Of a stretch of DNA of 64,000 nt, positions 7,095-25,537 are shown piece after piece. Location of the stretch: NCBI GenBank assembly GCA_900769815.1, contig CAAGID010000030.1, positions 80,415-144,414 on the forward strand. Reading direction: 5' to 3'. Both the position numbers and the translations under genes were made by a program. Below the pieces are notes generated by a model. It searched no databases and was not told where the DNA came from. It worked only from the letters and a program-made list of their open reading frames with translations. The first letter of the stretch is position 1, and the number at the start of each line of letters is the position of its first letter. Source of the stretch: Clostridia bacterium (lineage in GTDB: Bacteria > Bacillota > Clostridia > Christensenellales > QALW01).

Positions 7095-7119
7095 AGTGAT
7101 GTACTCCTTGTAATATTGT

Positions 7120-9026: not shown

Positions 9027-9039
9027 AATATACCTCTCT

Positions 9040-10230
9040 TCAATCTCTAAAATACAAATCTCTCGTATATACTTTATCCAATACATCTGATATATCATCA
9101 CTGTATCGGTTTGCTAGAATCACATCTGACATTTGCTTAAAATCATTCAGATCTCGAATTACACGGCTGTTGAAGAAGCTATTCTCTTTCATAGTCGGCT
9201 CGTAGATAACCACTTCAATTCCTTTGGCCTTAATACGCTTCATAACCCCCTGAATAGAGGATTGACGGAAATTATCAGACCCTGCCTTCATTGTAAGACG
9301 ATAGACGCCGACGATTTTAGGATGCTTTGCAATAATCTGATCGGCAATAAAATCTTTACGGGTCCCGTTTGCCGCAACAATTGCAGAAATAATGTTCTGC
9401 GGAACATCGTTGTAATTGGCAAGAAGTTGTTTAGTATCCTTAGGCAAGCAGTAGCCACCATAACCGAAAGAAGGATTGTTATAATGAGAACCAATACGAG
9501 GGTCAAGTCCCACGCCCTCAATAATAGACTTTGTATCAAGTCCACGTACGGCCGCATAAGTGTCAAGTTCATTAAAGAAGCTGACACGCAATGCAAGATA
9601 AGTGTTGGCAAACAGTTTTACCGCCTCTGCCTCGGTTGGATTCATATATCGGACTTCGATATCCTCCTTGATCGCGCCTTCTTTGAGCAAAGAAGCAAAG
9701 GTTTCTGCGGCTTTTTCCAAGCGCTTGTTACGAACAGGAACCCCAACGATAATACGGCTGGGATAAAGATTGTCGTACAACGCCTTGCCTTCACGGAGAA
9801 ACTCCGGGCTGAACAAAATATTATCACAACAGAAATCCTCTCTTGCCTTCTCGGTAAAACCAACGGGTACGGTAGATTTTACGATCATAACTGCATCGGG
9901 ATTGACTTCTATAACCTGCTCAATGACTGATTCAACGGATGATGTATCAAAATAATTTTTGTTCGGGTCATAGTTTGTAGGCGTAGAGATAATAACCAGC
10001 TCAGCATCCTTGTATGCGGATGCCCCATCAGTTGTAGCAATAAGTTTTAAGTTTTTGGTTGCCAAATATTCTTCGATTTCCTTATCTACGATAGGGGATT
10101 TCTTGTTGTTGATCATCTCTACCTTTTCTGGGATGATGTCAACTGCGGTAACTTCATTGTTCTGCGCAAGCAGAATTGCCATAGATAAACCGACATAGCC
10201 GGTTCCTGCGACTGCTATTTTCATTTGCAT
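9040..10230 (-). CDS. ugd: UDP-glucose 6-dehydrogenase
   Basis: [23 protein letters not shown]… (NAD-binding GxGxxG), …[12 protein letters not shown]… (catalytic Cys motif). RBS AAAGGAGAG. Confidence 0.92.
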
Positions 10231-10325: not shown

Positions 10326-11417
10326 TTATTTGTTCTGATAAAATTCGTGATACCATTCCGCAAATTTGCGAAGTCCGTCACGAAGTGAGGTGGACGGCTT
10401 GAAACCGAAATCTCTTTCGAGTGCAGAGGTGTCTGCATATGTGATTGGTACGTCGCCGGGCTGCATCGGAACGAGCTTTTTATGAGCTTCAAAGTCGTAA
10501 TCTTCGGGTAAAACTTTCGCACGGATAAGTTCCTCTTGAAGAATGGTTACGAAATCTAAAAGGTTTTCAGGATTATTATTACCGATATTATAAACAGCAT
10601 AGGGTGGTAAAGGAAGACCATCCTCCCCCATCTGCCTTTCAGGTGCACGTTGCATAACTCTCTTTACGCCTTCAACAATGTCATCAACATAAGTAAAATC
10701 ACGCTTACAATTACCATAGTTGAAAATCTCGATGGTTTCGCCTTTTAAAAGCTTATTCGTAAAACCGAAATACGCCATATCAGGACGACCTGCAGGACCA
10801 TAAACTGTAAAGAAACGAAGTCCCGTAGAAGGAATGTTGTATAATTTCGAATAGGCGTGTGCCATTAGTTCGTTGCTCTTTTTTGTTGCGGCATAGAGCG
10901 AGACAGGGTTGTCCACCTTATCGTCAGTCGAATATGGAATTTTCTTGTTTGATCCGTAAACTGAAGATGAAGAAGCATAAACTAAATGTTCCACAGGATA
11001 ATCTGTGTTCATTGTTGCACGGCAGGCTTCCAAAATATTATAAAATCCAATGATGTTGCTCTCAATATACACATCGGGATTAGTGATCGAATAGCGAACA
11101 CCTGCCTGAGCAGCAAGATTAACAACAATCGAAAAGTGATACTTTTCAAAAAGACTATCGATAAGTGCACGATCTGCAAGATTTCCTTTCACAAATTCCC
11201 ATGTGCAATCAGTATGCTCAGTTGCGTGCTTTTCAATCTCAGTAAGACGATATTCCTTTATTGAAACGTCATAGTAGTCGTTGAGGTTGTCAAGACCGAC
11301 TATATGAATACCGGGAACTGTGCGAAGTAGGTCCATTACAAGGTTCGAGCCGATGAAACCAGCTGCACCTGTAACCAGAATGGTCATATTTTCCATATTT
11401 ACATTAGGTGTTAACAT
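10326..11417 (-). CDS. UDP-glucuronate 4-epimerase (NAD-dependent SDR epimerase; makes UDP-GalA)
   Basis: …ILVTGAAGFIGSNL…LDNLNDYYDVSIKEYRL…YASSSSVYG…YAATKKSNE… matches the Cap1J/GlaKP/LpsL-type pattern. The ORF track opens at a TTG (11447); I prefer the ATG at 11417 (GAAGGT 12 nt upstream). The start is uncertain within 11396-11447. Confidence 0.8.
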   Translation of the reverse strand: MLTPNVNMENMTILVTGAAGFIGSNLVMDLLRTVPGIHIVGLDNLNDYYDVSIKEYRLTEIEKHATEHTDCTWEFVKGNLADRALIDSLFEKYHFSIVVNLAAQAGVRYSITNPDVYIESNIIGFYNILEACRATMNTDYPVEHLVYASSSSVYGSNKKIPYSTDDKVDNPVSLYAATKKSNELMAHAYSKLYNIPSTGLRFFTVYGPAGRPDMAYFGFTNKLLKGETIEIFNYGNCKRDFTYVDDIVEGVKRVMQRAPERQMGEDGLPLPPYAVYNIGNNNPENLLDFVTILQEELIRAKVLPEDYDFEAHKKLVPMQPGDVPITYADTSALERDFGFKPSTSLRDGLRKFAEWYHEFYQNK

Positions 11418-11447: not shown

Positions 11448-12617
11448 TTATTCCATCTTACCAAAGACGTATTTTTGATATTGGTCTATAGGAGTACACT
11501 TCATCTTTCTTATCCATCGAAGTACTTCACCGGTTCTTTTACCAAATGGTCCACGACCATGCGCCATCTCTACCACCCAAATACCCCCATCCTTCATGTT
11601 CGCCTCAATCAGTACAGGTTCGCCCTCTTTGTTGATCGTAAAATCCCAATTTACGCAGCCTATCTGAGGGATTGCCTCATGCATTCTGTATGACGCTTTC
11701 AGGACTTCGGGGAACAGCGGGATTTTGTAGCCTGCAAATTTTAAATGGGTATCCGGATGTTCTTTGAACTCTTTTTTAAACTCGGTAAAAGCAGTATCAT
11801 GTATGGTTCCGTCATCGTCAATGGCGATAAACATACCTCCGGCATGGGCATTATCCAAATAACTGCCTCCCTTACCTATTCTCATGATCGCAGGCATGTG
11901 ACAAATTCTATCTTTCCAGCGATATGTAATAATCCGGAATGTATTCACGCTCTTATCGTAAATATTTGCAATGCTTTCATGGCAAGACAATCTCTCTTGT
12001 ACTACAAAATTTTCCCCCAGAGATTCCAATACCGCTTCTGCTTTCATGCCGGATATCCGGTCGACGCCATTCTGCATATCCAGTAGCACGCAACCTCTTC
12101 CGGACGAGGAATCGACTGACGGCTTAGCAAATACCTCCCCCAGTCCACTTAGGTTAGACATCGCCTGTTCTTTAGAAATAAATCGTCTGTCGGGATCGCA
12201 ATACGCGCCCCTGTTTGCCAACAAGAGGCACTTTGGCACTGTTACATTGACGGACTCCGCAAAGAAGGGTAGCACATTTTTGTCATAGAACGCATTCATA
12301 TATGCATTGTTTATATTCATATAATACTCAAACTCTGGGATAAACAGCAATTCAGGAAAATAATTTACATCAAAGTTACCCGTATATGCTGTAAAATGCC
12401 GATGCCAAGTATAGGGGATCTTCTCGCCGTAGTTGTCCAAATACAACTTGTCTATCGCTTTTTCCTGTTCTTTCGTCAATGTAACCGATGACCAAATCGG
12501 GACCCTGCGAGGGTCCTTGAACTTTTTGATCTCCCATTTTCTTTTCCTATTGACGATCATGTTATCAAAGGTCTTTAAAAGAGTTTGCTTAAATTTTTTT
12601 CGAATCCTTAAAAACAT
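11448..12617 (-). CDS. ATP-grasp protein of the sugar-transfer-associated type (ATPgrasp_ST-like)
   Basis: 389 aa: …FPELLFIPEFEYYMN…VFAKPSVDSSSGRGCVLL…FVVQERL…GGMFIAIDDDG…NWDFTINKEGEPVLIEAN…. These ATP-grasp fold motifs have the layout found in polysaccharide loci. Confidence 0.65.
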   Translation of the reverse strand: MFLRIRKKFKQTLLKTFDNMIVNRKRKWEIKKFKDPRRVPIWSSVTLTKEQEKAIDKLYLDNYGEKIPYTWHRHFTAYTGNFDVNYFPELLFIPEFEYYMNINNAYMNAFYDKNVLPFFAESVNVTVPKCLLLANRGAYCDPDRRFISKEQAMSNLSGLGEVFAKPSVDSSSGRGCVLLDMQNGVDRISGMKAEAVLESLGENFVVQERLSCHESIANIYDKSVNTFRIITYRWKDRICHMPAIMRIGKGGSYLDNAHAGGMFIAIDDDGTIHDTAFTEFKKEFKEHPDTHLKFAGYKIPLFPEVLKASYRMHEAIPQIGCVNWDFTINKEGEPVLIEANMKDGGIWVVEMAHGRGPFGKRTGEVLRWIRKMKCTPIDQYQKYVFGKME

Positions 12618-12690
12618 TTTTTATCTCTCCCTTTTCCCTAAACTTTTCCGATTCTCCGATGCCGCTATTTTACTTGGCGTTTGCTACTCT

Positions 12691-13854
12691 CTATTTTTTG
12701 AGCGCCGCCCGAAGTTGCGTTGAACTAATCCCTTGCGTATATGGAAAATAAACGATCTCTACACCCTTATCCTTAAAGTATTCCTCATATCGCATAAAGC
12801 GTTCTGTTCCTTTGTAGTCACTGCCAACAAACAGTTTATTATATTTCACTACATCGTAAGCATCACAATCTTCTGCAAACGATTCTATGACTTCATCCAC
12901 ATAACAGATATGCTTTATGATCTCCGATCGCTCCTCGAAAGGAATAAATGTTTCCTTTCCTTTCCATGCACCACTCTTATGTACGCCAACCACAAGATAG
13001 TCACACTGCTCCTTTGCTCTGCGGAGCAGATTCAAATGTCCGATGTGGAACAAATCAAATGTGCCGCTGAGATAACCGACCACCACCTGTGGTTTTCTAT
13101 TGATACGACCACTTTTCAGCTTATAGTCATAGCTTTCCAATCCGTACTGCATTGGATCTGTATGATAACGTTTCAACACGCCTTTATAGATATCTTCATA
13201 TTGCGGGATATACAGCGTTTCACGCTCATACATACGCGTAATGATATGCTCCGCGGCCGCAGCGACCTGCGCTATGTCGTTTCCCTGCCCATTGAAATTG
13301 GTCCCTTTCAAAGAGCCTGGAGATACATCTAAAATCCGGTTTTGATAACCGTCGTGACATAGCTCTGCATTCAAGTTCTCAATAAAACTGCACAAGCCCG
13401 ACTTGGAAGCACCATACACCGAAAACAACGGGGAGACAACATGTCCGGCAATACTTCCCATGACCGCACAATAAAAGTCTTCCTCTTTGTTACATAGCTT
13501 GGAATAAAACTTTTGAATTACCTGCACCGGTCCCAGCATATTGCACTTTATCAGCTTTTCAATTTCTATGGCGGTCAAATCATCAAAACGCGCAACTCTG
13601 CCAAATCCGGCAGTAATCAAAAGGGCATCAATGTCGGTCATGCCATCGAGGCAATCCAGTCTATCCTGTGTCAAATCGATCCGTTGGAAAGATGTACACT
13701 TTTCAAATTTCTGCGTTATGTTCTGAGGAATATCATCTGCCTTAGGTGCATCCTTACCCACTATATACACATGGTCATAACCGCGTTCCAGCAGATTCAA
13801 CACCATTGCAAGCCCAATGCCGCTATTTCCGCCTACTACGAGTGCTTTTTTCAC
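12691..13854 (-). CDS. Two-domain fusion: N-terminal classical SDR oxidoreductase + C-terminal TagD-type (HxGH) cytidylyltransferase
   Basis: GTG start at 13854 (GGGGGG 6 nt upstream). SDR domain: KKALVVGGNSGIGLAMV… and …SVYGASKSG… (YxxxK). Cytidylyltransferase domain: …VVGYLSGTFDLFHIGHLNLLRRAK… (HxGH) and …YTQGISSTQLR (RTxGISTT-like). The track's 51-codon N-terminal extension overlaps the upstream gene and is unsupported. Confidence 0.8.
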   Translation of the reverse strand: MKKALVVGGNSGIGLAMVLNLLERGYDHVYIVGKDAPKADDIPQNITQKFEKCTSFQRIDLTQDRLDCLDGMTDIDALLITAGFGRVARFDDLTAIEIEKLIKCNMLGPVQVIQKFYSKLCNKEEDFYCAVMGSIAGHVVSPLFSVYGASKSGLCSFIENLNAELCHDGYQNRILDVSPGSLKGTNFNGQGNDIAQVAAAAEHIITRMYERETLYIPQYEDIYKGVLKRYHTDPMQYGLESYDYKLKSGRINRKPQVVVGYLSGTFDLFHIGHLNLLRRAKEQCDYLVVGVHKSGAWKGKETFIPFEERSEIIKHICYVDEVIESFAEDCDAYDVVKYNKLFVGSDYKGTERFMRYEEYFKDKGVEIVYFPYTQGISSTQLRAALKK

Positions 13855-14791
13855 TGTGATCCCCCCTTGTTTCTCTTGTTTTTGTATTACTTGGAAGAAC
13901 AATCTGTTCTCCCCATATATAGTCGTATTGCTCCGGAATGAACGGAACCATTCCGCCATGATGAAAAAATGTATATTCGCCAAAATATACTTGACCGTTG
14001 ACCTCATACATATCTATCCGCACCTGCGGAATGCCCTTGCTAAGCTGTGAAGCCAACCGAACCATTTCCTCATATTTTTGGGGACGTTGAATCGGATAAG
14101 TACTATTGGGGTGCGCCGCCTGTCGCAGTGGCAACCGATTGAAATCAATGTCGAAATAATCAAACTTTACTTCCTGCCCTACCCTATTTCTGTCCGATGC
14201 AATGAATAAGTACTTGGGTTCTCCGTTAAAACTGAAAAATTTGTAGTCCTTCAATTCTCTCGATACATCATCGATCATAAACTGTTCGGCAATAATTCGG
14301 GGCGGGACGTTTTTATATGGCCATTCCCTACCTTTTTTGTAGAAATTCGCAGCAAGCGCATTTTCAATCTTTTTCTTTGCCGCCTCGCGATCTAGCTTTG
14401 ACTTATCGGTTACAATTACAAGACCCCCGCTATCATGGGTACACTTTAAAACAAACTGATCGGGGAGTGTATCAAAATCAATATCATCAAAGTTTTCCCA
14501 GACACCCAAGGTAGGTATTATATATTCTTCTCCGATTTTGTCCGCAACATATTCCTTGACCGCCATCTTGTCCACAAGAGTCGTATACAAAGGATTATGA
14601 TCGTACAGTTTAAGCCACTGGAGTTTTTCGTTGAATGTCGTTGGATCCTTCAGGTTTAATTTTTTATCCATAGCCGCACGATACTTCATTTTAACAAACG
14701 CCTTGTCACTCATCCAGTCAAAAGAGATATACTTTTCCAGCTTCCAATATAGTCGAAATGGGTTTTTAATATATGATATCAATTTACTCAC
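13823..14791 (-). CDS. TupA-like ATP-grasp amidoligase-family protein (ATPgrasp_TupA)
   Basis: …LNLKDPTTFNEKLQWLKLYDHNPLYTTLVDKMAVKEYV…IPTLGVWENFDDIDFDTLPDQFVLKCTHDSGGLVIV… is the hallmark of this family. Start placed at the GTG at 14791 after AGGAGGGG. Confidence 0.8.
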   Translation of the reverse strand: MSKLISYIKNPFRLYWKLEKYISFDWMSDKAFVKMKYRAAMDKKLNLKDPTTFNEKLQWLKLYDHNPLYTTLVDKMAVKEYVADKIGEEYIIPTLGVWENFDDIDFDTLPDQFVLKCTHDSGGLVIVTDKSKLDREAAKKKIENALAANFYKKGREWPYKNVPPRIIAEQFMIDDVSRELKDYKFFSFNGEPKYLFIASDRNRVGQEVKFDYFDIDFNRLPLRQAAHPNSTYPIQRPQKYEEMVRLASQLSKGIPQVRIDMYEVNGQVYFGEYTFFHHGGMVPFIPEQYDYIWGEQIVLPSNTKTRETRGDHSEKSTRSRRK

Positions 14792-14833
14792 TGCCTCACC
14801 CCTCCTAAAAGCGTACATACTTTATCTGGCATG

Positions 14834-16018
14834 CTACTGATCCGCATTAGGTGCTTCGTTGGAACACTGTTTTTTATGCTGTTTTACATAAAAATCATTG
14901 ATTCTGTTACAAATGATCTCTGCTGACTTACCTGATTCATATACATGAAACACTTTACAAATATGCTCTGCATTTTTCTGATAATCATCTTCATCCATCT
15001 GTGCAAGGATGTCATTCAGTTCCTGCTGTGTTTTCGCAACGAGAAAGCCCTTTTCCTCAAAGTCGTATGAAATTTCACGATCGTTCCGAATATACTCATC
15101 CAAATCAAACGCCGCTAGAACAACGCCCTTACCCCTACGAATAAAATCAGAGGCACAGGAGGAGTAATCAGATATCAGCAGATCTCCGATTGCAAGCAAA
15201 TCCGCCATATCCGGATAATCGGAAACATCAATACAACGCGTACCATCACAGGAAAAATCAAGTTTTTCCGTGTTGGAATGTGCTCTAACCAAGCATACCC
15301 ACTTGTTACCCTTGGATTCCAGAATTTCCAATGCCTTATTCAAATCAATCAAAACACGCTGAAACTCTTTGTTGTGATCCCGAAACGTGGGTGCATATAT
15401 CAATATTTTTGTATCTTTGCCAATACATAATTTCTCCCGTGTCATATCCTGTTCTTGTAGATCAACACATATCAGTTTATCGTTTCTGGGGGTCCCTACG
15501 CGCAATACCTCGCCCTTATAATTAAAAGCAGTTCTATATTGGGACTCCCCGTAATCGGATGCCGCAATACACAGATCCGTAATGTATTCATCCTGTATGG
15601 GTGTTGCCCACTGTTCTTTGGTCTTGATATCGTATAGCACCTTCTTAAATCCAATATCCCCATGCCAGGTTTGTATAAAAAACTGCCCCTTAGGTCTCTT
15701 TCGTATATTTGCTCTGTTATGTGTGTTTGTAACAAAGCAAAAGCAAGAAGAAAGCGCATCATAAAATTCTTTTCCGCAGCAATTAACTAACTTAATATAT
15801 TCCGGCATTATTTTCTGCATCTTTTCTTTGTCACTCACTGCCCACACGATTTGATACTCCGGATATAGCTCATGTAATTTAATGGAAATTGCCTTGGGAT
15901 TATCCGAATACTGTGCACCGTTAAAGTTCATAAATAACACTTCATTTTTAGGGCTTTGCATCATCCATCTAAGCTTCATATATCCCTTTCGAAGGGTCAT
16001 AGATATTTTTTTATTCAT
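14834..16018 (-). CDS. CDP-alditol (CDP-glycerol/ribitol) polyol-phosphotransferase, TagB/TagF family
   Basis: …FNGAQYSDNPKAI…QTWHGDIGFKKV…YAPTFRD…LISDYSS… are conserved TagF-family blocks. The start codon is uncertain (poor RBS at all candidates). Confidence 0.8.
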   Translation of the reverse strand: MNKKISMTLRKGYMKLRWMMQSPKNEVLFMNFNGAQYSDNPKAISIKLHELYPEYQIVWAVSDKEKMQKIMPEYIKLVNCCGKEFYDALSSCFCFVTNTHNRANIRKRPKGQFFIQTWHGDIGFKKVLYDIKTKEQWATPIQDEYITDLCIAASDYGESQYRTAFNYKGEVLRVGTPRNDKLICVDLQEQDMTREKLCIGKDTKILIYAPTFRDHNKEFQRVLIDLNKALEILESKGNKWVCLVRAHSNTEKLDFSCDGTRCIDVSDYPDMADLLAIGDLLISDYSSCASDFIRRGKGVVLAAFDLDEYIRNDREISYDFEEKGFLVAKTQQELNDILAQMDEDDYQKNAEHICKVFHVYESGKSAEIICNRINDFYVKQHKKQCSNEAPNADQ

Positions 16019-16083
16019 AACAACAAATATTTTCTCCTGTCTCTGTATATACTAACAGATTTTCCAAAACAGTATGCACCGTT

Positions 16084-17526
16084 TTATCCGTTCTTAAGTT
16101 CCTTCAGAAAAGAAAGCACTTTCTTTCTCCGAACGAACGCCCAAATAGTCAATAGAGCAATTATGGAATATCTCAGTATCGGCAATTTGAATATTAAAAA
16201 AAAGCTAAAGCCACAGATCAAAAAGATCAACGAAATCGTCATTAGGATCCTAAAATCATATACCTTCACTCCCCCAAGATCCTTTTTGCAAACATTCCGC
16301 ATGAAAACGAAATGCATTCCACAATACACAATATAGCAGATAAGTGTTGTATATCCCGCTGCGAAATACCCCCAAATAGGAATAGCCAAATAGTTAAGCA
16401 GTACATTCAGTAGGGCACCAATGACACTTGCAAGCGCAATTTTCCACGTTTTCTTATTGTAGAACTCAAACGCAGCAAACACATTATATGCAAAGGTAAA
16501 ATAAACACTCATAGCAATCGGGGGAATGATCCAAATCGCATCTGCGTAGGTTTTCGGCGCAAATATTGCAATAACCTCAGGTGCAAAAGCAATAAGTATT
16601 ACATTGATAAACGCTATTCCAATCAAACAAGGATATATCGTTTTTGAAATATCCTCAAACTTTCTAGTTTTTATTTTGTGATAAATCCAAGGACTCAATG
16701 TTGACAATAATGCCGTATTGAACAATCCCATTATCCGGGAAACTGAGTAAGCCAAATTATAAACTCCTGCTTCTCCGGAGCCAACCATTGCATTTATCAT
16801 AATGCGGTCAGCACTGTTCAACACAGTTTGCGATAAATAATGCGGAATTAACGGAATATTAAATGATAGTGCATATTTCCAAAACTTCTTAGAACAAAAA
16901 ACCTTTCCACGTCGCATTTGGACGAAGAACAATCCACCATAGCAAATTAAGTCTACAAGCGCTAAACCTAAAATTCTAGCAAGCACTTTATCTTCTGCAT
17001 TAAGAACAAGAATAATTCCTAGTCCCGGCTTTGCGACAGATGCGCTCAAAGTAATCAAGACCAATGCCACATAGTTTAACTTTACGCGTTGTTCCACTAC
17101 CCAAAAATTGAAGACAGCTGTTGACCATATCATAACCAGCATAGCAAGACACTGTACTGTGGTTAACCCAAGAAGCTCATTCCAGAAATTGCGGAACAAA
17201 AAATATAAAACTGTCCAGATAAAGGTCAAGGTCAGTGTTAGTCCTTGTAAGGAAGATGTAAATACATTTTTCTCCTCATCAAACTTAACTAGTCCCTGCA
17301 TATAAACGCCCGCACTTAGGTTCAGCGTAATAAATACAGACAAGATATCCTGCCACGAAGAAAAGGAACTATATGCGCCGTACTCCGCTGTGGTTAAGAG
17401 CCTTGTGAAAATCGGGGTAGTAATAAAGGATATCCCTCTTTGCAGGAAAGTGCAAATCAATATCCAAATTGATGCCTTTACGCCTCGATTAAGAGCTTTA
17501 TATTTTTGCAACAGTTTTCTTACCAT
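16084..17526 (-). CDS. wzx: Oligosaccharide flippase (Wzx, MOP superfamily)
   Basis: 480 aa, about 12-14 TM. N-terminus …GVKASIWILICTFLQRGISFITTPIFTRLLTTAEYG… is typical of polysaccharide biosynthesis/flippase proteins. Confidence 0.8.
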   Translation of the reverse strand: MVRKLLQKYKALNRGVKASIWILICTFLQRGISFITTPIFTRLLTTAEYGAYSSFSSWQDILSVFITLNLSAGVYMQGLVKFDEEKNVFTSSLQGLTLTLTFIWTVLYFLFRNFWNELLGLTTVQCLAMLVMIWSTAVFNFWVVEQRVKLNYVALVLITLSASVAKPGLGIILVLNAEDKVLARILGLALVDLICYGGLFFVQMRRGKVFCSKKFWKYALSFNIPLIPHYLSQTVLNSADRIMINAMVGSGEAGVYNLAYSVSRIMGLFNTALLSTLSPWIYHKIKTRKFEDISKTIYPCLIGIAFINVILIAFAPEVIAIFAPKTYADAIWIIPPIAMSVYFTFAYNVFAAFEFYNKKTWKIALASVIGALLNVLLNYLAIPIWGYFAAGYTTLICYIVYCGMHFVFMRNVCKKDLGGVKVYDFRILMTISLIFLICGFSFFLIFKLPILRYSIIALLTIWAFVRRKKVLSFLKELKNG

Positions 17527-17549: not shown

Positions 17550-18677
17550 TCAGCCCAAAGAACCCAATATTCCCTCTGCGCGTTTCTTCCAAGTGTATTT
17601 TTCAGTAAAGTCATTATAGGCGCGCTGTGCAATCTCGTCGCGCAACTGTTCGTCTCTTTGAAGCGCATCAATGGATTTAACCCAAGCATCAATATCGTCA
17701 GGATCACACATCAATCCGTTTTCACTGTGATGCATGACTTCCTTCAGCACATCCAGATCGGAACACAAGATCGGCTTTCCCCAAGACATATATTCAAACA
17801 ACTTCAAAGGTGACATCCATTTACCGATGTCGTTTTTATTGTCTGTCGCACCCGCAGTTCTGACGTTCCGCATATAGGGCGCGATCAGGCAATCCATCGC
17901 CATTCCGTATTGCTGTGCCTCGACCGGCTTTACGAAGCCGTAAAACGCTATGTTGTCGCATCCCTGCAACTGCTCCTTCCAAAAGTCAATATCCTTTTCC
18001 ATTCCTCCAACGATATGGAAAAAGGTATTAGGGCATTTGGGAGCCAACTGGGAAATAATTTCCATTCCCTTTCCCTTATACAGATGTCCGATGTAGCCCA
18101 AATTGAGCATATTCTCGTACCGAATTTCATTTTTCGCCACCACATTGGGATCAACCGGATCGGCACCGTCGTGTGCTACGTGTATAAACTGCTCGTCCAC
18201 GCCGTATTTGTCTACGTAAAAATTCTTCAACTGTTGGGAAATGACCACGAGCTTTTTTAGCTTTTTCATCCGCAACAGCATCTTAAACTGCATGACGGCT
18301 TTCTTTCCCAATCCGTCGATTGCGGAATGGGATTCCCACACCGTTGCAAATCCCGAAGCAGCCGCCATTAGACAACAGGTTACGTCACGGCTGTATACCA
18401 GATCAGCTTTTTCTTTTTTATAAACCCGCAACGTTCTCAGTGCATATCGCAACGCCCTCAATGGGAAGCGCTGGGGCCAGCGTGTATATTGAATGGAAAA
18501 GTTTTTTCTGACGTTATAATAAGAAAACAGATCCACCGTATCGTCCCTAGCAATATCCGATGAAATCAAAAGCGTATCGTGCTCAATATCAGAAAATGCC
18601 TGACACATTTTCATAATATGAATGCTGTTTGCCTCTCTGGAGGGAATTTTAGATATGGAACAATAAACGAGTTTCAT
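17550..18677 (-). CDS. Glycosyltransferase, GT4 (GT-B) family
   Basis: 375 aa. C-terminal …SPLKLFEYMSWGKPILCSDL…E… is an EX7E-like motif. Confidence 0.8.
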   Translation of the reverse strand: MKLVYCSISKIPSREANSIHIMKMCQAFSDIEHDTLLISSDIARDDTVDLFSYYNVRKNFSIQYTRWPQRFPLRALRYALRTLRVYKKEKADLVYSRDVTCCLMAAASGFATVWESHSAIDGLGKKAVMQFKMLLRMKKLKKLVVISQQLKNFYVDKYGVDEQFIHVAHDGADPVDPNVVAKNEIRYENMLNLGYIGHLYKGKGMEIISQLAPKCPNTFFHIVGGMEKDIDFWKEQLQGCDNIAFYGFVKPVEAQQYGMAMDCLIAPYMRNVRTAGATDNKNDIGKWMSPLKLFEYMSWGKPILCSDLDVLKEVMHHSENGLMCDPDDIDAWVKSIDALQRDEQLRDEIAQRAYNDFTEKYTWKKRAEGILGSLG

Positions 18678-19969
18678 TTTACTTTATCTCCTGCCATCAG
18701 GCACTTTTCGTGTTGCTCTTGTTTCTGTTGCAAAAAGACGATCATAAAGAAGACAAATGGCATCGAGAAATGATGAATAAACGGTTCCTTGGCTTCTACA
18801 ACTGCAATCGCAACAAAAAAGAACAACATGATAAACTTGATATCTCTATTTTTAATAGCAATAATGTTTTTTAACATTTCTTTATACAGACAGACATAGA
18901 ATACAACAGCCATAATAAGACCGTATCCAAAGTAAGCCTGCAGATAACCCGTATCAGACCGGCTAAGAACACCACTGCTGGAATAACCTCGATAGATAGA
19001 GGTTCCTATGATAGTTTCGGCAGAAATGGGAGCCACCTCCTGTGCCTGAAGTGATGTCACAAAGGAGGAATTATCCGCACCACCCTCCAAAAGCTCCTTT
19101 ATTTTTCTATAGATACCGAATTTCTCTATGGAAGAAAAGAATTCAGGATAAATAATAAGCAGTGCTCCACATCCCAAAAGTCCTATAACAACGATCCAAA
19201 TACCTTTAACAGAGAGCTTAGAAAATACAAGATACAATGTCACCAAAACCAAAAGCACGGCACCAAAAGCGAAGCCGGTAGAACCCGATAGTAAGGTAGC
19301 AAATAGAATAAATATATACCCAAGTGTGTATAACAGGAGACTTCTCTTTTTGATCATGAGATAGGCACCTGAAACCATTCCTATAAACAGATTGACGGAC
19401 AACAGTGCCTCTCCAGCTCCCAAGCCTGCAGCACGGTAGGGAGATAAATAGGAAAAGTTTGTATCCAAAACAAAGTGATTGTATAAAAAATACTTGACAC
19501 TATCGCTAAAGTACTGTGATATAGCAATTGCAGCTTGTAAAAGTGTCGCAAAAAAAACTGCTTTAAAAAACTGCTCACTGTTATCAAAACAGTCGTACAT
19601 AAAATAACAAATCAGCGGAACAAAAAAAACAAACAACAACGTTCTGGATAAAATAGATTCTCCATTAACAGAGGATCCAATATTATTGATAATACCTAAA
19701 AGGAACACCCAACCAAGCATTACGATAGATAATACAAATATATTAATTATTGTTCTTCCCGATAATGTGGTTTTAGAAGGAAGTTTAATTATAAAATTTC
19801 TTCTGGCAAGAAACAATACCATGCATAAAAAGAATACCAGTTTTCTAGAGGTTAGAATATCAGGAACACCGATAGGCTGAACTTCATATATAAAGAAAAA
19901 CACCAATAATGTTTGCCATAATGTTTTTCGTGAAGATGATAATCCCTTGTCTTTTAATTCGTCTTTCAT
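18674..19969 (-). CDS. wzy: O-antigen/capsule repeat-unit polymerase (Wzy-like, O-antigen ligase-like membrane protein)
   Basis: 431 aa, about 10-12 TM, with a larger loop near the C-terminal third. AT-rich, and sits between GT genes next to wzx. Confidence 0.65.
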   Translation of the reverse strand: MKDELKDKGLSSSRKTLWQTLLVFFFIYEVQPIGVPDILTSRKLVFFLCMVLFLARRNFIIKLPSKTTLSGRTIINIFVLSIVMLGWVFLLGIINNIGSSVNGESILSRTLLFVFFVPLICYFMYDCFDNSEQFFKAVFFATLLQAAIAISQYFSDSVKYFLYNHFVLDTNFSYLSPYRAAGLGAGEALLSVNLFIGMVSGAYLMIKKRSLLLYTLGYIFILFATLLSGSTGFAFGAVLLVLVTLYLVFSKLSVKGIWIVVIGLLGCGALLIIYPEFFSSIEKFGIYRKIKELLEGGADNSSFVTSLQAQEVAPISAETIIGTSIYRGYSSSGVLSRSDTGYLQAYFGYGLIMAVVFYVCLYKEMLKNIIAIKNRDIKFIMLFFFVAIAVVEAKEPFIHHFSMPFVFFMIVFLQQKQEQHEKCLMAGDKVK

Positions 19970-19978
19970 AAACTCTCC

Positions 19979-21070
19979 TTAGATACCCTTTTTCACAGTA
20001 GAGGTAATCACGTCCTGCCATGCTGTGAATATTCTTTGTTGAGAATGGGTTTTTGTAATTTGTTTTTCGTTATTCCTCAACTCCAGATTATCACCATTGT
20101 CTAAAACAATTCGCATCTTTGTAATTAAGTCATCCTCATCGCCTGTCGTAAATAAATAACCGTTGACGCCATTTTGAATTAATTCTCTTGGTCCTCCGCA
20201 AGGGCAATCAGAACAAACAGCCGGAATTCCTAAGCACATTGCCTCCATCAAAGCATTCGGCATCCCTTCGTAATATGATGTCATCACAAACAACCGTGCG
20301 CCATATATTTTATTCAAAACATCCGGATACGCACCCGCCAATATAATCTTTTTGCATGCGGTTTCCTGTATCAGTGCACTCAAATTTGCTTTTAACGGAC
20401 CTTCTCCATATATTTCTAAAGTCAATTCCGGATAATATTTACTGATTTTTGAAAATGCCCGAATGAGCAACTCATAATTTTTTTGCTTTGACAGTCTGCC
20501 TACTGCTACAACGCGATTATCCTGTTTTCTTATAGGATAATCCTCAAATTTGAGATAGACAGGGTTATGAATGACAACACCTTTTCTCTGGATCTCTTCA
20601 GAAAAATATGCTTTAGCATCGCTGGTTTGGAAAACGATCTTGGATACTGCTTTTAGTGCCACATATCGCATCAACTTCGCCAATTTACCATATTCGAGGT
20701 TGGGATCATTTCTCTCAGAATAAATCATAGGTATACTTTTCGCACAACCGGAAATTACAGCATAAAAAACAGGCTGAATCCAATAACTGATAATAACATC
20801 TGGATTGATTTGCCGAATGATACGCTTTGTAAATTGGAGTATCTTCATATGCATAGCAAGTTTTCCGGAGTTCGCAATTTTATTTCCGATAAAGCATACA
20901 TTTTCGGCTACAGGATATGCCTGTGCATCGCCTTCCACAGAGACCAGATACACTTCATTTTCACAATTTTCGGAAAGCCAATTTGCCAGATTGATTATAG
21001 ACTTCTCGGCACCGCCGTATATATTGCCAGCCTTACTTACAGAAAGGCACGCCATCAACATAATTTTCAT
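19979..21070 (-). CDS. Glycosyltransferase, GT4 family
   Basis: 363 aa: …GGAEKSIINLANWL… at the N-terminus and …SYYEGMPNALMEAMCLGIPAVCSD… (EX7E). Confidence 0.85.
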   Translation of the reverse strand: MKIMLMACLSVSKAGNIYGGAEKSIINLANWLSENCENEVYLVSVEGDAQAYPVAENVCFIGNKIANSGKLAMHMKILQFTKRIIRQINPDVIISYWIQPVFYAVISGCAKSIPMIYSERNDPNLEYGKLAKLMRYVALKAVSKIVFQTSDAKAYFSEEIQRKGVVIHNPVYLKFEDYPIRKQDNRVVAVGRLSKQKNYELLIRAFSKISKYYPELTLEIYGEGPLKANLSALIQETACKKIILAGAYPDVLNKIYGARLFVMTSYYEGMPNALMEAMCLGIPAVCSDCPCGGPRELIQNGVNGYLFTTGDEDDLITKMRIVLDNGDNLELRNNEKQITKTHSQQRIFTAWQDVITSTVKKGI

Positions 21071-22170
21071 AGTTTTTTACCCATATTACATATTTCAGAC
21101 AATTTATGAAATGAAGCAAGTGCTATCTGTTCCCATGAATATGTATTTCTTACATATTCCTTACAACGACTAATATATAAATCTTGACAATTTAAATAAT
21201 CTTTCTTTGCCTTTAACAAGGCATTTGCAATACTTTCACTATCCAATTCTGTTCCCCAGCCAAGATTCTGCTCTACCACTTCATTCATCACATTTGTTCC
21301 AGGTGTTACCAAACAAGGATTTCCGTATTTCCATGCCTCTAGTACTGTCATAGGAAATCCTTCATACCGTGAGGTCAGTAACATAATTCCGTGTCTTTCC
21401 AACAACTTTTTCTGTGCATCTCCGTAGATCGGGCCACAATTCGTTACCTTCAAAGAACGGTAATTCCTGATTCTGTTATTTATATAGTCAATACTTTTCT
21501 CTGAACCAGTACCATAGAGTTCTATCTGTATAACCGCATCCTTTTGTTCCAGGATATCCAGTGCATCAAACAAATAATCCAGTCCCTTATGGTTAATATC
21601 AAATCTACCAATAAAATAGAAAGACCAATTCTCTTGCGGTACATATTCGGCAACTATTTCATCGGTTTTTATACCATTAGGAATCACCAAATCACATAAG
21701 GTGCAATATTTCGAATCTGCCTTTTCGTTCTCATTCAGAAAAATATAACCCTTTGCTTTTTTCATAAAGGATCGCAATATCAAATGATTTGCTACCAACT
21801 TTTTGTATTTGGATTTTGTCAATGCTGCCTCACCAAAGGATCCATGTGGCTCGATAAAATACGGTATCCCCAATTTAATAAGCGTTTTATAAAATTTAAG
21901 GTATTCAAAATAATAATGACTATGAAAAATAACCACATCCGGGTCAACGCTATGAACAAAGGATTCAAAAGACCGATCTCCCAAACAATTAAAATATGGA
22001 GAACTCATTTGAGATATGTCTGCTTTAACCGACAGAACGCTTGCTTCAAAACCCTTTATTTCATTTTGTGCATTTACTAAATTTCTCAAAACGACCGGTA
22101 TTCCTCCTGAAAGATTTAAATGTGTCGCTGTAACGTGTAATAGTCTCATTGTTTTCACGGCAACAACCAT
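21067..22170 (-). CDS. Glycosyltransferase, GT4 family
   Basis: 367 aa: …SGGIPVVLRNL… and …SRYEGFPMTVLEAWKYGNPCLVT…. The start may instead be the ATG at 22149 (MRLLHV…). Confidence 0.8.
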   Translation of the reverse strand: MVVAVKTMRLLHVTATHLNLSGGIPVVLRNLVNAQNEIKGFEASVLSVKADISQMSSPYFNCLGDRSFESFVHSVDPDVVIFHSHYYFEYLKFYKTLIKLGIPYFIEPHGSFGEAALTKSKYKKLVANHLILRSFMKKAKGYIFLNENEKADSKYCTLCDLVIPNGIKTDEIVAEYVPQENWSFYFIGRFDINHKGLDYLFDALDILEQKDAVIQIELYGTGSEKSIDYINNRIRNYRSLKVTNCGPIYGDAQKKLLERHGIMLLTSRYEGFPMTVLEAWKYGNPCLVTPGTNVMNEVVEQNLGWGTELDSESIANALLKAKKDYLNCQDLYISRCKEYVRNTYSWEQIALASFHKLSEICNMGKKL

Positions 22171-22255
22171 TAATATTTTGTTGCCATACCTCTTTCTTCA
22201 ATATATTGGGATAAACAATCAATACAGCTATCTTACTAAAACATATCCTGTTTTA

Positions 22256-22714
22256 TCAATCAAGCCGTTTAATTAACTTCGCCGGAATTCCTCCATACAA
22301 GCATCCTGACTCTTTCAGATCCGATGTCACAACGGCTCCCGCTGCTACTATTGAATGATCTGCAATATTTACACCGGAACAGATCGTTACATTTGCACAC
22401 AGCCATACATTGTTTCCTACGTTGATAGGTCTTTCAATATGCATGTCCTCGTTTTCTGCTCTTTCCCACCACTTCGTTGTATCTAATCCTGTAGAGATAA
22501 TTGCAACTCCATGCGAAAGAACGCAAGCATCTCCGATCGTTACATTGCCAACCGCATTTATAAATACATTATCGTTGATATGTACCTTCTTGCCAAGCTT
22601 TAAGCGTTTTTTAAAATACACACGCGGTACCTCATATAAAACAGCCTGGGAAAACTGTGGAAAGATACTCTTAAATAATGTGGTTTTAATTTTTCGATAT
22701 ATTCTACCGACCAA
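22256..22714 (-). CDS. Hexapeptide-repeat (LbH) acetyltransferase
   Basis: 152 aa with repeated [LIV]-G-x-x-x-x units (…IGDACVLSHGVAII…VGNNVWLCANVTICSGVNIADHSIVAAGAVV…). Confidence 0.8.
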   Translation of the reverse strand: MVGRIYRKIKTTLFKSIFPQFSQAVLYEVPRVYFKKRLKLGKKVHINDNVFINAVGNVTIGDACVLSHGVAIISTGLDTTKWWERAENEDMHIERPINVGNNVWLCANVTICSGVNIADHSIVAAGAVVTSDLKESGCLYGGIPAKLIKRLD

Positions 22715-22719
22715 CTATA

Positions 22720-23538
22720 TCACTTCCTCAAAAATTTTTTATACACCCAATATTGAATTTTGACCGGCATCAAAAACATTCCGGTTTGAGCCACTGCCAC
22801 AATCATATAGTCAGCAAAGCTTGCGTAGCCCATTTTCCAAAAACGTTTAATAGTATCAATGTAACTTTTTGTGTTTTCCCAACTTTTGCGACGTTTTGCA
22901 AGATCGTCATTAGATCGGAAATACAAAAGTGATTCCCCGATGTTTTGTGCTTTACAGCCTGAGAAAAGCATTCTTCCAAAGAGATCAACGTCTTGATTTC
23001 TTCTTAAATCTGAATATCCACCATTTTCAAGCACCTTGTTTTTCCTGTACATTACGGCAGGGTGATTAAATGCGCTGCGCTTTTTTGCAAAGTTATAAAT
23101 ATCATCGTGCTTTTCAGGAACTTCACGAACTGAAACAACTTCATCGGGGGAAGAATAAAATTCATCTACAAAAGAACCCACAATGCTTAATTCCGGATTC
23201 ATTTCAAACACCTTTAATTGCTTTTCGCAACGCTCCGATTTTGATATATCATCTGTATCCATACGCGCAACAAGCTCGTTCTTGCATTCTTTCAGACCCT
23301 CATTCAAAGCTAAGCCTAAACCTATGTTTTCTTTATTAACTACGATCGAAAACAATCCAGGATATTTGTCTGTATATTCTTTTATAACCGCATACAATTC
23401 ATCATTTAACGGACCATCTTCTACTATAACAATCTCATCAGGTAAAACTGTTTGGTTGATCATACTATCAATGGCCATCCGTAAATATTCAGGCTTTTCT
23501 TTTACATACAAAGACATAAGTACGCTGTAGTTTTCCAT
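22720..23538 (-). CDS. Glycosyltransferase, GT2 family
   Basis: …SVLMSLYVKEKPEYLRMAIDSMINQT…EIVIVEDGP…ARMDTDD… (DxD). Confidence 0.85.
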   Translation of the reverse strand: MENYSVLMSLYVKEKPEYLRMAIDSMINQTVLPDEIVIVEDGPLNDELYAVIKEYTDKYPGLFSIVVNKENIGLGLALNEGLKECKNELVARMDTDDISKSERCEKQLKVFEMNPELSIVGSFVDEFYSSPDEVVSVREVPEKHDDIYNFAKKRSAFNHPAVMYRKNKVLENGGYSDLRRNQDVDLFGRMLFSGCKAQNIGESLLYFRSNDDLAKRRKSWENTKSYIDTIKRFWKMGYASFADYMIVAVAQTGMFLMPVKIQYWVYKKFLRK

Positions 23539-23543
23539 ACTAA

Positions 23544-24239
23544 TTAACTCCTCAACATTTCTTTTGCTTCTGCCTGCTTTGCATCATAAGTCTCTTGATC
23601 TACTTTACCTTCCATCAGCAACCAATCACCAAAGTCCATATCAGATACAGTACCCTCACGAACTGTGTCACTTCTTTTGAGAACCTTGCCAACTGTCTGG
23701 AAAATGATTTTCATATCACCGATAAACGTGATGCCTTTGTCTATGTATTCAAGATCGAATTCAATTTTCTGTTCCCAAGTAATATTGTTGCGCCCGTTTA
23801 CTTGTGCAAGTCCGGTCAAACCGGGACGAACATCGTGCCTTCTTCGCTGTTCTTCTGTCATAAAAACGCAATCCCGAACCAAGAAGGGTCTTGGACCGAC
23901 TATTGAAATGTGCGCTAAGGCTATATTGGCTAAAGATGGAAGCTCGTCAAGTGACGTGCTACGGAGCCACGCACCATACTTTCCGAGACGCTGATCATCT
24001 GGAAGAAGATTTCCGTCTTTATCTTTTGCGTTACTCATAGTGCGAAATTTTATCAACTTGAAAATCTTTTCTTTTCCATCTTTACCTTTCTTACCGGGTC
24101 TTGGCTGAAAGAAAAACGGATTACCTTTCATAGCAATTGCACCAACCACAGTCAAGATAAGCAGGATTGGAGACAACACAAGCAAAACTATCACAGATAA
24201 TATGAAATCTATCAATCTCTTAAAAAACTTTGCGTACAT
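23544..24239 (-). CDS. Small monotopic undecaprenyl-phosphate sugar-phosphotransferase (initiating PGT; PglC/WcfS/EpsL-like)
   Basis: MYAKFFKRLIDFILSVIVLLVLSPILL…KFRTM…DELP…VGPRP… are canonical bacterial sugar-transferase motifs; 231 aa. Confidence 0.88.
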   Translation of the reverse strand: MYAKFFKRLIDFILSVIVLLVLSPILLILTVVGAIAMKGNPFFFQPRPGKKGKDGKEKIFKLIKFRTMSNAKDKDGNLLPDDQRLGKYGAWLRSTSLDELPSLANIALAHISIVGPRPFLVRDCVFMTEEQRRRHDVRPGLTGLAQVNGRNNITWEQKIEFDLEYIDKGITFIGDMKIIFQTVGKVLKRSDTVREGTVSDMDFGDWLLMEGKVDQETYDAKQAEAKEMLRS

Positions 24240-24259
24240 TATCTATTCCTCTTTCAAAT

Positions 24260-25537
24260 TTAATTGAAACAGCTTCTAATAATCTCTATCACCTTGTCCT
24301 GTTCCTCAGAAGGCATCTTATTGTCAGACGGCAAACACAAACCGCGTTCAAAGATATCCGCACCCACATCCACACAACTGCCGGCAATATAGGCGTTGGT
24401 TCTGCAACGTCCGCTGCCATCGCGGGTTACAAATTCGTGCATACGATACATCGGCTGCATATGCATCGGTTTCCAAATTGGTCTGCCTTCGACGTTATAT
24501 TTAGCGAGAGTTTCTAAAATTTCTGTCGGACAAGTCTTACCCGGCTCTTTTATGTACAATGCCGTTGAATCATCTCTGACCTGCTTGCACATATAATCCT
24601 TGCTGATGATCATAGCAGACAGCCAATAGTTCGGTTCTGTGCCATCCATAATCGGATTCATTTGTACCGGCAAGTCCTTGAAGCCGTCACGGTAACGCTC
24701 ATAAATCGCTTTTTTCTGTGCGATGTGTTCTTCCAAGTAAGGGTACTGGCCACGTACAACACCTGCAATCACGTTGCTCATACGATAATTATAGCCGACT
24801 TCCTCGTGCTGATACCATGGAGCGTTTTCTCTTGCTTGCGTTGACCACTTGCGAGCTTTATTCGCAACCTCGATATCGTTTGTCAAAAGACAGCCACCAG
24901 CAGAGCCGGTGATGATCTTATTGCCGTTGTAGCTGATCGCAGAGTAATTACCAAAAGAACCGCACTGTCTGCCGTTAATAGTTGCGCCCATTGCTTCTGC
25001 CGCATCTTCAATCAGAAGCGCACCGTGCTTCTCACAAATTTCCTTAATCAAATCCATTCTTCCGGGGAAGCCGTACAGTTCTGCAGAAACGACTAATTTC
25101 ACATCGGGATACATTTCAAATGCTTTTTCAAGTGCTACAGGATCCATATTCCATGAATCTGATTCCGTGTCAATAAATACAGGAATACCACCCTCATAAA
25201 CAACAGGATTTAATGTGGCATCAAAGGTCATATCGGAGCAAAATACTCGTTTGCCCTCCAATGCACCGTGACTGATTGCAGGTTTACCGTAAAGTGTTTC
25301 GCCTGCGTGTTTAATTGCCAAATGAAGTGCAGCAGTACAACAAGACAGACCCACCGCATATTTCATCTCTGCCTTTTCGGCGGCTATACGCTCAACCTCG
25401 TTGATATTCTCGCCAACCGTACTCATCCAGTTTGTATCATAAGCCTGCTGAACATATTTCATTTCCTCGCCGTGCATTGTCGGTGTAGCAAGCCAGACCT
25501 TTTTCTCAAACGGTGCAAACTGTTTTGAATCTTTCAT
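24260..25537 (-). CDS. DegT/DnrJ/EryC1/StrS-family PLP aminotransferase (nucleotide-4-keto-6-deoxy-sugar aminotransferase; PglE/WcfR/EpsN-like)
   Basis: …TPTMHGEEMKYVQQAYDTNWMSTVGENI…LIEDAAEAMG…SYNGNKIITGSAGG… (PLP lysine region). First gene after the locus promoter. Confidence 0.85.
   Translation of the reverse strand: MKDSKQFAPFEKKVWLATPTMHGEEMKYVQQAYDTNWMSTVGENINEVERIAAEKAEMKYAVGLSCCTAALHLAIKHAGETLYGKPAISHGALEGKRVFCSDMTFDATLNPVVYEGGIPVFIDTESDSWNMDPVALEKAFEMYPDVKLVVSAELYGFPGRMDLIKEICEKHGALLIEDAAEAMGATINGRQCGSFGNYSAISYNGNKIITGSAGGCLLTNDIEVANKARKWSTQARENAPWYQHEEVGYNYRMSNVIAGVVRGQYPYLEEHIAQKKAIYERYRDGFKDLPVQMNPIMDGTEPNYWLSAMIISKDYMCKQVRDDSTALYIKEPGKTCPTEILETLAKYNVEGRPIWKPMHMQPMYRMHEFVTRDGSGRCRTNAYIAGSCVDVGADIFERGLCLPSDNKMPSEEQDKVIEIIRSCFN

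Follow-up and report, generated by a model that had tools for sequence, protein, structure and literature searches.

A recurrent pair of ATP-grasp ligases as candidate decorators of uronic acids in surface-polysaccharide loci of gut anaerobes

The window analysed here, a stretch of 64,000 nucleotides of contig CAAGID010000030.1 from a Clostridia bacterium, contains on its minus strand (about 5.3-25.5 kb) a Wzx/Wzy-type surface-heteropolysaccharide operon of an uncultured gut Clostridia-like bacterium, in which two genes encode ATP-grasp ligases: a TupA-like protein of family PF14305 and a member of the ATPgrasp_ST family, PF14397. Our main finding is that the joint presence of these two ligases is no peculiarity of the window: they form a pair that recurs in most of the PF14397 loci compared with full flanks. 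The best explanation of the observations as a whole, to which we give a probability of about 0.5, combines the amidation of a uronic acid by the TupA-like enzyme and a subsequent second ligation by the PF14397 enzyme. The broader claim, that both ligases are amide-forming decorators of the acid sugars of the glycan, we regard as probable. Amidoligation by TupA-like proteins was already known and PF14397 was a predicted, uncharacterised family; what is new is that the two recur as one cassette in gut anaerobes, and that they are unrelated to the gene lying between them in the window, a fusion of a short-chain dehydrogenase/reductase (SDR) and a cytidylyltransferase.

Two ATP-grasp ligases and their recurrent association

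The initial annotation of this DNA described the two open reading frames (ORFs) as a TupA-like ligase and as a different, sugar-transfer-associated ATP-grasp protein. Both ORFs were found again on the minus strand with the same boundaries (Table 1), and profile searches bear out both family assignments at scores well above anything that chance would give. The TupA-like ORF starts with a GTG codon 9 nt downstream of an AGGAGG sequence, and an independent gene call on the same DNA (L001) gives the same 322 amino acids. It contains the motifs FNEKLQWLKLYD and VLKCTHDSGG and matches PF14305 from end to end (E 7.8e-69; 232.3 bits for a cut-off of 25; profile positions 1-241 of 241). In an alignment of 29 TupA-like homologues, K116 (in FVLKCTHDSGG), H119, D120, E169, R258, D260 and E272 are invariant. 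The second ORF, whose ATG start follows GGGAGAG, matches PF14397 over profile positions 6-271 of 278 (E 7.5e-48; 163.6 bits for a cut-off of 31.4); its secondary matches, to models of YheC/D-like and RimK-related glutamate ligases, are weak. Among 23 PF14397 homologues there is no variation, or hardly any, in the ATP-binding K165, the hinge Q207/E208, R246, the DNAHAGG motif and the Mg-binding D325...E338-x-N340.

Structure modelling, which the initial annotation had proposed, gave an ATP-grasp ligase fold for both proteins. The AlphaFold2 model of the TupA-like protein (predicted local distance difference test, pLDDT, 89.7) finds Ddl and LysX as its best Foldseek matches (E 1e-6), and that of the PF14397 protein (pLDDT 90.7) matches Ddl, RimK, LysX and L-amino-acid ligases (E 2e-7). 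BLASTP detects no similarity between the two sequences (E 2.3), and the proteins therefore belong to two different ligase families, as had been claimed. A search of both against the PDB returned no sequence-level relative for either, their likeness to solved proteins being one of fold alone. Indeed, the nearest solved folds of both ligases, those of RimK, LysX/ArgX, Ddl and the L-amino-acid ligases (Foldseek E 1e-7 to 1e-6), share only 10-17% identity with them, with TM scores of 0.35-0.5. What they have in common with the window pair are the ATP-binding Lys, the hinge Glu and the Mg-binding residues, D...E-x-N in the PF14397 protein and D...E-x-T in the TupA-like protein; by analogy, this likeness implies a chemistry that would proceed by acyl-phosphate formation. 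On the other hand, family-specific helical N-terminal regions replace the canonical pre-ATP-grasp domain in both window ligases, and RimK-type ligases use peptides or free amino acids, whereas glycan-linked substrates are proposed here. Judged by family, residues and modelled fold, both proteins appear to be intact ATP-grasp carboxylate-amine ligases.

The TupA-like protein was furthermore compared with the amidoligase domain of Campylobacter jejuni Cj1438 (Cj1438C), whose sequence was taken from the supplement of PMC11800379. BLASTP aligns the two over about 290 residues with 30% identity (E 6e-41), and they have in common the motifs TFNEKL, FVLK-x-HD-x-GG, REW-x-YK, PR-x-x-AE, VR-x-D-x-Y and GE-x-TF. 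The window protein is thus genuinely homologous, by sequence, to an enzyme whose activity as a uronate amidoligase is proven.

Both families show variation in architecture. The window TupA-like protein ends in a basic tail of 16 residues (13823-13870), modelled with low confidence, and relatives of 306 amino acids do not have it. Many TupA-like homologues are about 445 amino acids long (P0133, P0139 and P0131: about 440-490); their extra length stems from a duplication of the C-terminal half of the domain, or of an entire second partial domain. At 50% identity, PF14397 falls into 365 clusters for E <= 1e-30 and into 3,776 for E <= 1e-10, and tandem double-domain proteins of 750-1026 amino acids exist in it (P0468, P0469, P0490).

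The recurrence of the pair was established by scanning species-representative genomes with a PF14397 alignment. The scan gave 80 loci, from Clostridia, Collinsella, Bacteroidia, Elusimicrobia, Synergistaceae, Anaerococcus, Streptococcus constellatus and Alkalicoccus, whose ORFs were searched with the window proteins. Dereplication at 80% identity left 62 representatives, 36 of them with at least 6 kb on both sides, and the presence of neighbours was counted within 10 kb. A TupA-like gene is found in 28 of the 36 full-flank loci (78%), almost always on the same strand as PF14397 and either adjacent to it or one gene upstream. In the opposite direction, only 3 of 28 dereplicated metagenome loci anchored on a TupA-like gene (11%) carry PF14397. 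From this asymmetry it follows that PF14397 behaves as an add-on to the TupA-like gene and not the reverse.

The neighbourhood of the pair points to uronic acids. UDP-glucose 6-dehydrogenase (Ugd) is encoded in 18 of the 36 full-flank loci and a UDP-glucuronic acid (UDP-GlcA) epimerase-like protein in 16; one or the other is present in 20 (56%), and 22 have Ugd, the epimerase or a GHMP kinase. In the TupA-anchored loci, Ugd or the epimerase occurs in 13 of 28. An unbiased clustering of the neighbours in the 62 dereplicated loci recovered TupA-like genes (43 loci), epimerase-type SDRs (29), Ugd (22) and phosphoglycosyl transferases (PGT; 20), together with GT4 and GT2 glycosyltransferases, Wzx-like flippases (15), as a rule adjacent, and pyruvyl-transferase-like genes (10). 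No other nucleotide-sugar genes are as common in these loci as Ugd and the epimerase; RmlA, for comparison, is found in 9. No aminotransferase, decarboxylase or HAD phosphatase family is conserved around the pair at the 5-locus threshold of this clustering.

Eight full-flank loci contain PF14397 and no TupA-like gene. Three are orphan PF14397 genes amid housekeeping genes (L018, L024, L051); three are Elusimicrobia loci (L076, L080, L081), two with tandem PF14397 paralogues (L076, L081), beside GT2; one (L049) is a different, ligase-rich Bacteroidia cluster, in which PF14397 lies amid other ATP-grasp and AMP-ligase genes; the last, L013, is considered below. In ordinary polysaccharide loci, the pairing of PF14397 with a TupA-like gene is close to universal. 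Only a minority of PF14397 genes lies outside polysaccharide loci, and these adjoin argininosuccinate synthase, SulP-type transporter or LpxB-like genes. The exact window proteins were found only on NCBI/ENA metagenome contigs; the closest relatives are gut and rumen Clostridia, with a PF14397 identity of at most 58% among the species-representative genomes.

A model for the two ligations and its alternatives

Two known systems guide the interpretation, and what the initial annotation says of both is correct. In C. jejuni, the TupA-like C-terminal domain of Cj1438 amidates the C6 carboxylate of glucuronic acid (GlcA) with ethanolamine phosphate or serinol phosphate in an ATP-dependent reaction (PMC11800379, PMC12409886), once GlcA has been added to the growing chain (PMC12409886); Cj1436 and Cj1437 make the amines, and the phosphatase Cj1435 then removes the phosphate (PMC11800379, PMC12409886). 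The tupA gene of Bacillus halodurans is connected with teichuronopeptide, in which polyglucuronate and poly-gamma-glutamate are combined (PMC8153356). Cj1438C (serotype HS:2) and the C-terminal domain of HS19.11 belong, as the window protein does, to PF14305, have Ugd in their locus and decorate a capsule-type glycan. Cj1438C is, however, fused to a GT2 and serves an ABC-transporter-type (poly-Kdo-linked) capsule, whereas the window protein is a separate polypeptide encoded in a Wzx/Wzy locus; no PF14397 partner has been described in C. jejuni, and the window substrate could be galacturonic acid (GalA) and not GlcA. Among the ORFs of the locus there is neither a Cj1438-type amine supply (a pyridoxal-phosphate-dependent transaminase or decarboxylase) nor a HAD phosphatase, the one aminotransferase being PglE-like. 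The TupA of B. halodurans C-125, the founding member of PF14305, belongs to a uronate-peptide conjugate of the kind that a two-ligase reading predicts; the polymer there is polyglucuronate, whereas the window encodes a repeat-unit heteropolysaccharide, and Pfam searches of the locus ORFs found no poly-gamma-glutamate synthetase (Pgs/Cap-type ligase). By their description, the WemR-type proteins of Proteus O-antigen loci are also alike, as TupA-like ATP-grasp proteins of surface-polysaccharide loci with a predicted amino-acid decoration, although these are Gram-negative O-antigen systems and predictions only (PMC13419641).

In the model we propose, Ugd and the epimerase would supply UDP-GlcA and UDP-GalA, as their sequences predict, and the glycosyltransferases would build GlcA or GalA into a repeat unit linked to undecaprenyl diphosphate at the cytoplasmic face of the membrane. 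The TupA-like enzyme would use ATP to convert the C6 carboxylate of the uronate into an acyl phosphate. An amine would then be attached, in the way that Cj1438C acts on GlcA already in the chain. The operon context, with Ugd and the epimerase, supports the TupA-like protein as a candidate for this amidation. The amine would most likely be an ordinary amino acid, because the genes for amine synthesis and the phosphatase are absent from the locus. The PF14397 enzyme would act as an accessory second ligase and perform a follow-up ATP-dependent ligation on the same glycan. The decorated unit would then be flipped by Wzx and polymerised by Wzy, and the fusion protein and the Glyphos_transf protein would act independently, making a CDP-polyol and adding a polyol-phosphate side group.

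In the version of this model that we prefer, though only tentatively, the PF14397 enzyme would extend the free carboxylate of the first-added amino acid in the manner of RimK, to give a uronoyl-dipeptide or oligopeptide. This version is favoured because of the asymmetric association of the two genes, the lean of PF14397 towards RimK and YheC/D-type ligases, and an earlier proposal, made on genomic grounds, that linked ATP-grasp ligases carry out successive ligations in teichuronopeptide and O-antigen synthesis (PMC4431377). The RimK-related and YheC/D ligases, to which PF14397 is weakly akin, act on amino-acid or peptide carboxylates. That the pair constitutes a portable two-step cassette, the TupA-like enzyme forming an N-uronoyl amino acid on GlcA or GalA and PF14397 a RimK-like di- or oligopeptide extension, we regard as unlikely.

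Several observations weigh against the model of uronate amidation followed by a second ligation. Neither Ugd, nor the epimerase, nor a GHMP kinase is found within 10 kb in 14 of the 36 PF14397 loci, and 15 of the 28 TupA-anchored loci have neither Ugd nor the epimerase; for the families as a whole, about 40-50% of the loci are without these two genes in this interval. These loci may use other carboxylates or have their supply genes elsewhere. The initial proposal of amide formation on GlcA or GalA carboxylates is supported in part: the ligase families, the homology to Cj1438C and the neighbouring genes argue for it, and this fraction of loci limits it. The comparators for the frequency of Ugd, moreover, were weak: the loci anchored on TupA, and how often the genes of other sugar pathways occur in the same loci. 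In L013, a GHMP kinase, PF14397, Ugd and the epimerase are found together and no TupA-like gene is present; this locus and the tandem PF14397 loci without TupA therefore indicate that PF14397 can work without the product of the TupA-like enzyme, which weakens the successive-ligation version. An identity of 30% to Cj1438C does not fix the substrate specificity of the TupA-like protein. A literature search on PF14397 and ATPgrasp_ST found no paper mentioning the family in the library searched. For both ligases, the carboxylate and the amine named here are those that we infer, and analogy suggests the order in which the two act as well as the lipid-linked stage.

The same data bear on other ways of employing two ligases. 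Each could amidate on its own account, the TupA-like enzyme acting for example on GlcA and PF14397 on GalA, or both on the same uronate with different amines; two distinct uronamides would result, and no peptide. The locus can make both UDP-GlcA and UDP-GalA; L013, and probably L052, L003 and L019, combine PF14397 with Ugd and the epimerase but have no TupA; and the uronamides described in bacterial glycans mostly carry a single amine or amino acid. An independent amidoligase should, however, occur alone with Ugd about as often as TupA does, an expectation at odds with the asymmetry of 78% to 11%; and since loci with TupA only also usually carry Ugd and the epimerase together, the epimerase does not track the second ligase. 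We regard such parallel amidations as somewhat unlikely. The activated carboxylate might also not be that of a uronate: one or both ligases would then couple an amino acid, or a pyruvate ketal or another acidic substituent, to the amine of an amino sugar, or modify another acid group of the glycan. The many loci without Ugd or the epimerase and the 10 of 62 with pyruvyl-transferase-like genes are compatible with this, and in the window the amine could come from the PglE-like aminotransferase or from a CE4 deacetylase (25863-26705). But the locus combines the aminotransferase with a hexapeptide acetyltransferase, as the N,N'-diacetylbacillosamine pathway does, so that the amine is probably acetylated; close homologues of DegT (score above 390) are confined to 2 of the 80 PF14397 loci; no family of CE4 deacetylases is frequent enough to pass the 5-locus threshold of the neighbour clustering; and Cj1438C and its HS:19 orthologue, to our knowledge the only characterised TupA-like enzyme, activate a uronate. 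This explanation is improbable.

The ligases could, finally, work with the fusion protein that separates them: this SDR-cytidylyltransferase would provide the amine, an amino-polyol either phosphorylated or activated with CDP. The gene order (TupA, fusion, PF14397), the 32-nt overlap of the first two genes, the use of phosphorylated amino alcohols by Cj1438C and a cytidylyltransferase domain equally similar to ethanolamine-phosphate cytidylyltransferase (ECT) and to TagD would all fit such a coupling. The flanking of the fusion by the ligases, on which the title of the initial annotation laid stress, proves nevertheless to be a coincidence of lineage. In other genomes, the gene separating TupA and PF14397 varies: it encodes a GT4, a flippase, a Wzy-like, a pyruvyl-transferase-like or a GT2 protein, and never an SDR-cytidylyltransferase. 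In the 80 PF14397 loci, the window's own DNA (L001) aside, either domain of the fusion finds weak, partial matches at most. L082, a close relative of the window locus (PF14397 88% identical, TupA-like protein about 89%), keeps both ligases and has a GT4 in place of the fusion and Glyphos_transf genes. Homologues of the fusion pair with Glyphos_transf or LicD, the latter together with rhamnose genes and without any ATP-grasp protein. There is also no aminotransferase for an amino-polyol, the DegT protein being PglE-like. The functional coupling of the ligases to the fusion was rejected on these weak matches, the varied intervening gene, the exchange in L082 and the partners of the fusion homologues. 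A contribution of the fusion to the amine is thus already largely refuted by the comparative data, and we consider it very improbable.

The cytidylyltransferase fusion and the layout of the locus

The fusion gene starts with a GTG codon at 13854, after AAGGGGGG, and overlaps the stop codon of the TupA-like gene by 32 nt. This overlap is due to the C-terminal tail of the TupA-like protein, and a translational coupling of the two genes is possible. In the fusion protein, the SDR is of the classical type; the best NCBIfam match of the C-terminal domain is glycerol-3-phosphate cytidylyltransferase, and its best solved relatives are TagD and ECT. This conserved architecture is widespread in Clostridia, where at least 120 clusters have an identity of 63% or above, and such fusions are annotated only as 'SDR family oxidoreductase'. 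Their genes directly follow Glyphos_transf in one context, and LicD in a rhamnose-type locus devoid of ATP-grasp genes (L166 7001-8158; L167 7001-8164).

The comparison with L082 shows what is exchanged. L082 retains the backbone of the locus, both ligases, the epimerase, Ugd, the GHMP kinase, the nucleotidyltransferase and NTP_transf_5, and in it the order TupA-Wzx-GT4 (6421-9922) replaces Wzx-Glyphos_transf-TupA-fusion (window 12691-17526); L084, a relative of 75% identity, has the window arrangement. Such an exchange between close relatives implies that the side group switches, as between serotypes, from polyol phosphate to sugar or back. The fusion and Glyphos_transf most likely form an independent, exchangeable module that makes a CDP-polyol and adds a polyol-phosphate side group, and the domains of the fusion suggest a one-protein route to the CDP-polyol, by reduction then cytidylylation or the reverse.

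Table 1. Coordinates of the features of the surface-polysaccharide operon in the window
Feature	Position	Strand	Family or evidence
TupA-like ATP-grasp ligase, 322 aa; candidate uronate C6-carboxylate amidoligase	13823..14791	-	PF14305
ATPgrasp_ST ligase, 389 aa; candidate second amide ligase	11448..12617	-	PF14397
SDR + TagD-like cytidylyltransferase fusion, 387 aa	12691..13854	-	adh_short + CTP_transf_like
CDP-alcohol phosphotransferase (Glyphos_transf, TarF-like)	14834..16018	-	PF04464, E 8.4e-65
UDP-glucuronate 4-epimerase-type SDR (UDP-GlcA to UDP-GalA)	10326..11417	-	PF01370/PF16363; 363 aa in L001 gene call
UDP-glucose 6-dehydrogenase (Ugd), UDP-GlcA source	9040..10230	-	all three UDPG_MGDP_dh domains
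Wzx-type flippase	16084..17526	-	PF01943, E 5.9e-20
Repeat-unit assembly genes (PglE-like, PglC-like, GT2, acetyltransferase, three GT4, Wzy candidate)	17550..25537	-	Pfam
PglE-like aminotransferase (DegT)	24260-25537		best PDB match PglE 1o61, E 2e-61
Galactokinase-like GHMP kinase	7854-9026	-	Pfam/NCBIfam; PDB galactokinases, E 7e-36
Sugar-1-P nucleotidylyltransferase	7120-7857	-	Pfam/NCBIfam
NTP_transf_5 ('uncharacterised nucleotidyltransferase')	5931-7094	-	PF14907; Pfam/NCBIfam
RbsD/FucU mutarotase	5319-5750	-	Pfam/NCBIfam

All long ORFs of the region are tightly packed on the minus strand. From 25537 to about 5319, the operon reads: PglE-like aminotransferase, PglC-like PGT, GT2, hexapeptide acetyltransferase, two GT4, a polytopic Wzy candidate, a further GT4, the Wzx flippase, Glyphos_transf, the TupA-like ligase, the fusion, the PF14397 ligase, the epimerase, Ugd and the GHMP kinase, with the sugar-1-P nucleotidylyltransferase, the NTP_transf_5 protein and the RbsD/FucU mutarotase at the 3' end. 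Housekeeping genes border it, a class-3 fructose-bisphosphatase and purine/pyrimidine operons upstream and a beta-CASP RNase downstream. The Ugd and 4-epimerase genes that had been placed immediately downstream of the ligases are indeed there, by profile and PDB matches. Ugd scores 335 bits with TIGR03026 (cut-off 190) and 628 bits with NF011631. The best solved relatives of the epimerase are 5u4q (E 3e-109), which we take to be a uronate epimerase of Klebsiella pneumoniae and which is deposited under a dehydratase name, B. cereus BcUGAepi (6zl6, E 4e-38) and MoeE5 (E 3e-31), the last two outranking the GalE entries among its PDB matches. The NCBIfam TarF match of Glyphos_transf, at 133 bits, lies below the cut-off.

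Other genes of the operon call for brief comment. The DegT aminotransferase was considered as a Cj1437-like dihydroxyacetone phosphate transaminase, a source of serinol phosphate, and rejected in this role, as its best relative is PglE (E 2e-61) and as a PglC-like PGT and a hexapeptide acetyltransferase lie alongside. The GHMP kinase was likewise set aside as a supplier of a phosphorylated amine, given its galactokinase signature and the 4-nt overlap of its gene with that of the sugar-1-P nucleotidylyltransferase. With this overlap and the RbsD/FucU mutarotase nearby, kinase, nucleotidylyltransferase and mutarotase look like a nucleoside-diphosphate-sugar salvage route, for which galactose, GalA, L-arabinose and L-fucose are candidate sugars. 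The kinase occurs in 7 and its nucleotidyltransferase in 6 of the 62 dereplicated PF14397 loci; the loci with the kinase are L003, L007, L009, L013, L057, L066 and L067, where it is sometimes directly upstream of the ligase and sometimes in a locus without Ugd. The NTP_transf_5 gene at the operon end is kept in close relatives (L001, L082) and not across the PF14397 loci. A polytopic membrane protein of 431 amino acids (18674-19969, minus strand), without a Pfam match, occupies the expected position of the Wzy polymerase, and no Wzz or CpsC-CpsD chain-length genes were found in the locus. Just upstream of it, a CE4 polysaccharide deacetylase without an obvious signal peptide (25863-26705, minus strand) could create a free amino sugar. 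Elsewhere, the window encodes formate-tetrahydrofolate ligase, purine and pyrimidine biosynthesis enzymes and oxaloacetate decarboxylase subunits (28.9-60.5 kb) and, amid housekeeping genes, a 655-amino-acid fusion of IspH/LytB with four S1 RNA-binding domains (52377-54344, minus strand).

Implications for acidic capsules

The amidation of uronates turns a negative charge into neutral, zwitterionic or peptide-bearing groups. It alters the charge of the capsule and its recognition by phages and antibodies, and possibly immunomodulation; the zwitterionic capsules of gut bacteria are known immune modulators. If the finding were only what the annotation suggests, it would be a useful but unsurprising functional prediction. 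If the two-ligase cassette is shown to decorate uronic acids in commensal anaerobes, a function would be given to two widespread families, uronamide or glycopeptide capsules would become predictable from sequence, and enzymes would be provided for chemo-enzymatic glycan derivatisation. Could teichuronopeptide-like glycan-peptide capsules be widespread in gut and rumen anaerobes, from Clostridia, Collinsella and Bacteroidia to Elusimicrobia and Streptococcus constellatus? If the two-step cassette is true, they would be, and PF14397 would represent a new class of glycan-templated peptide ligase.

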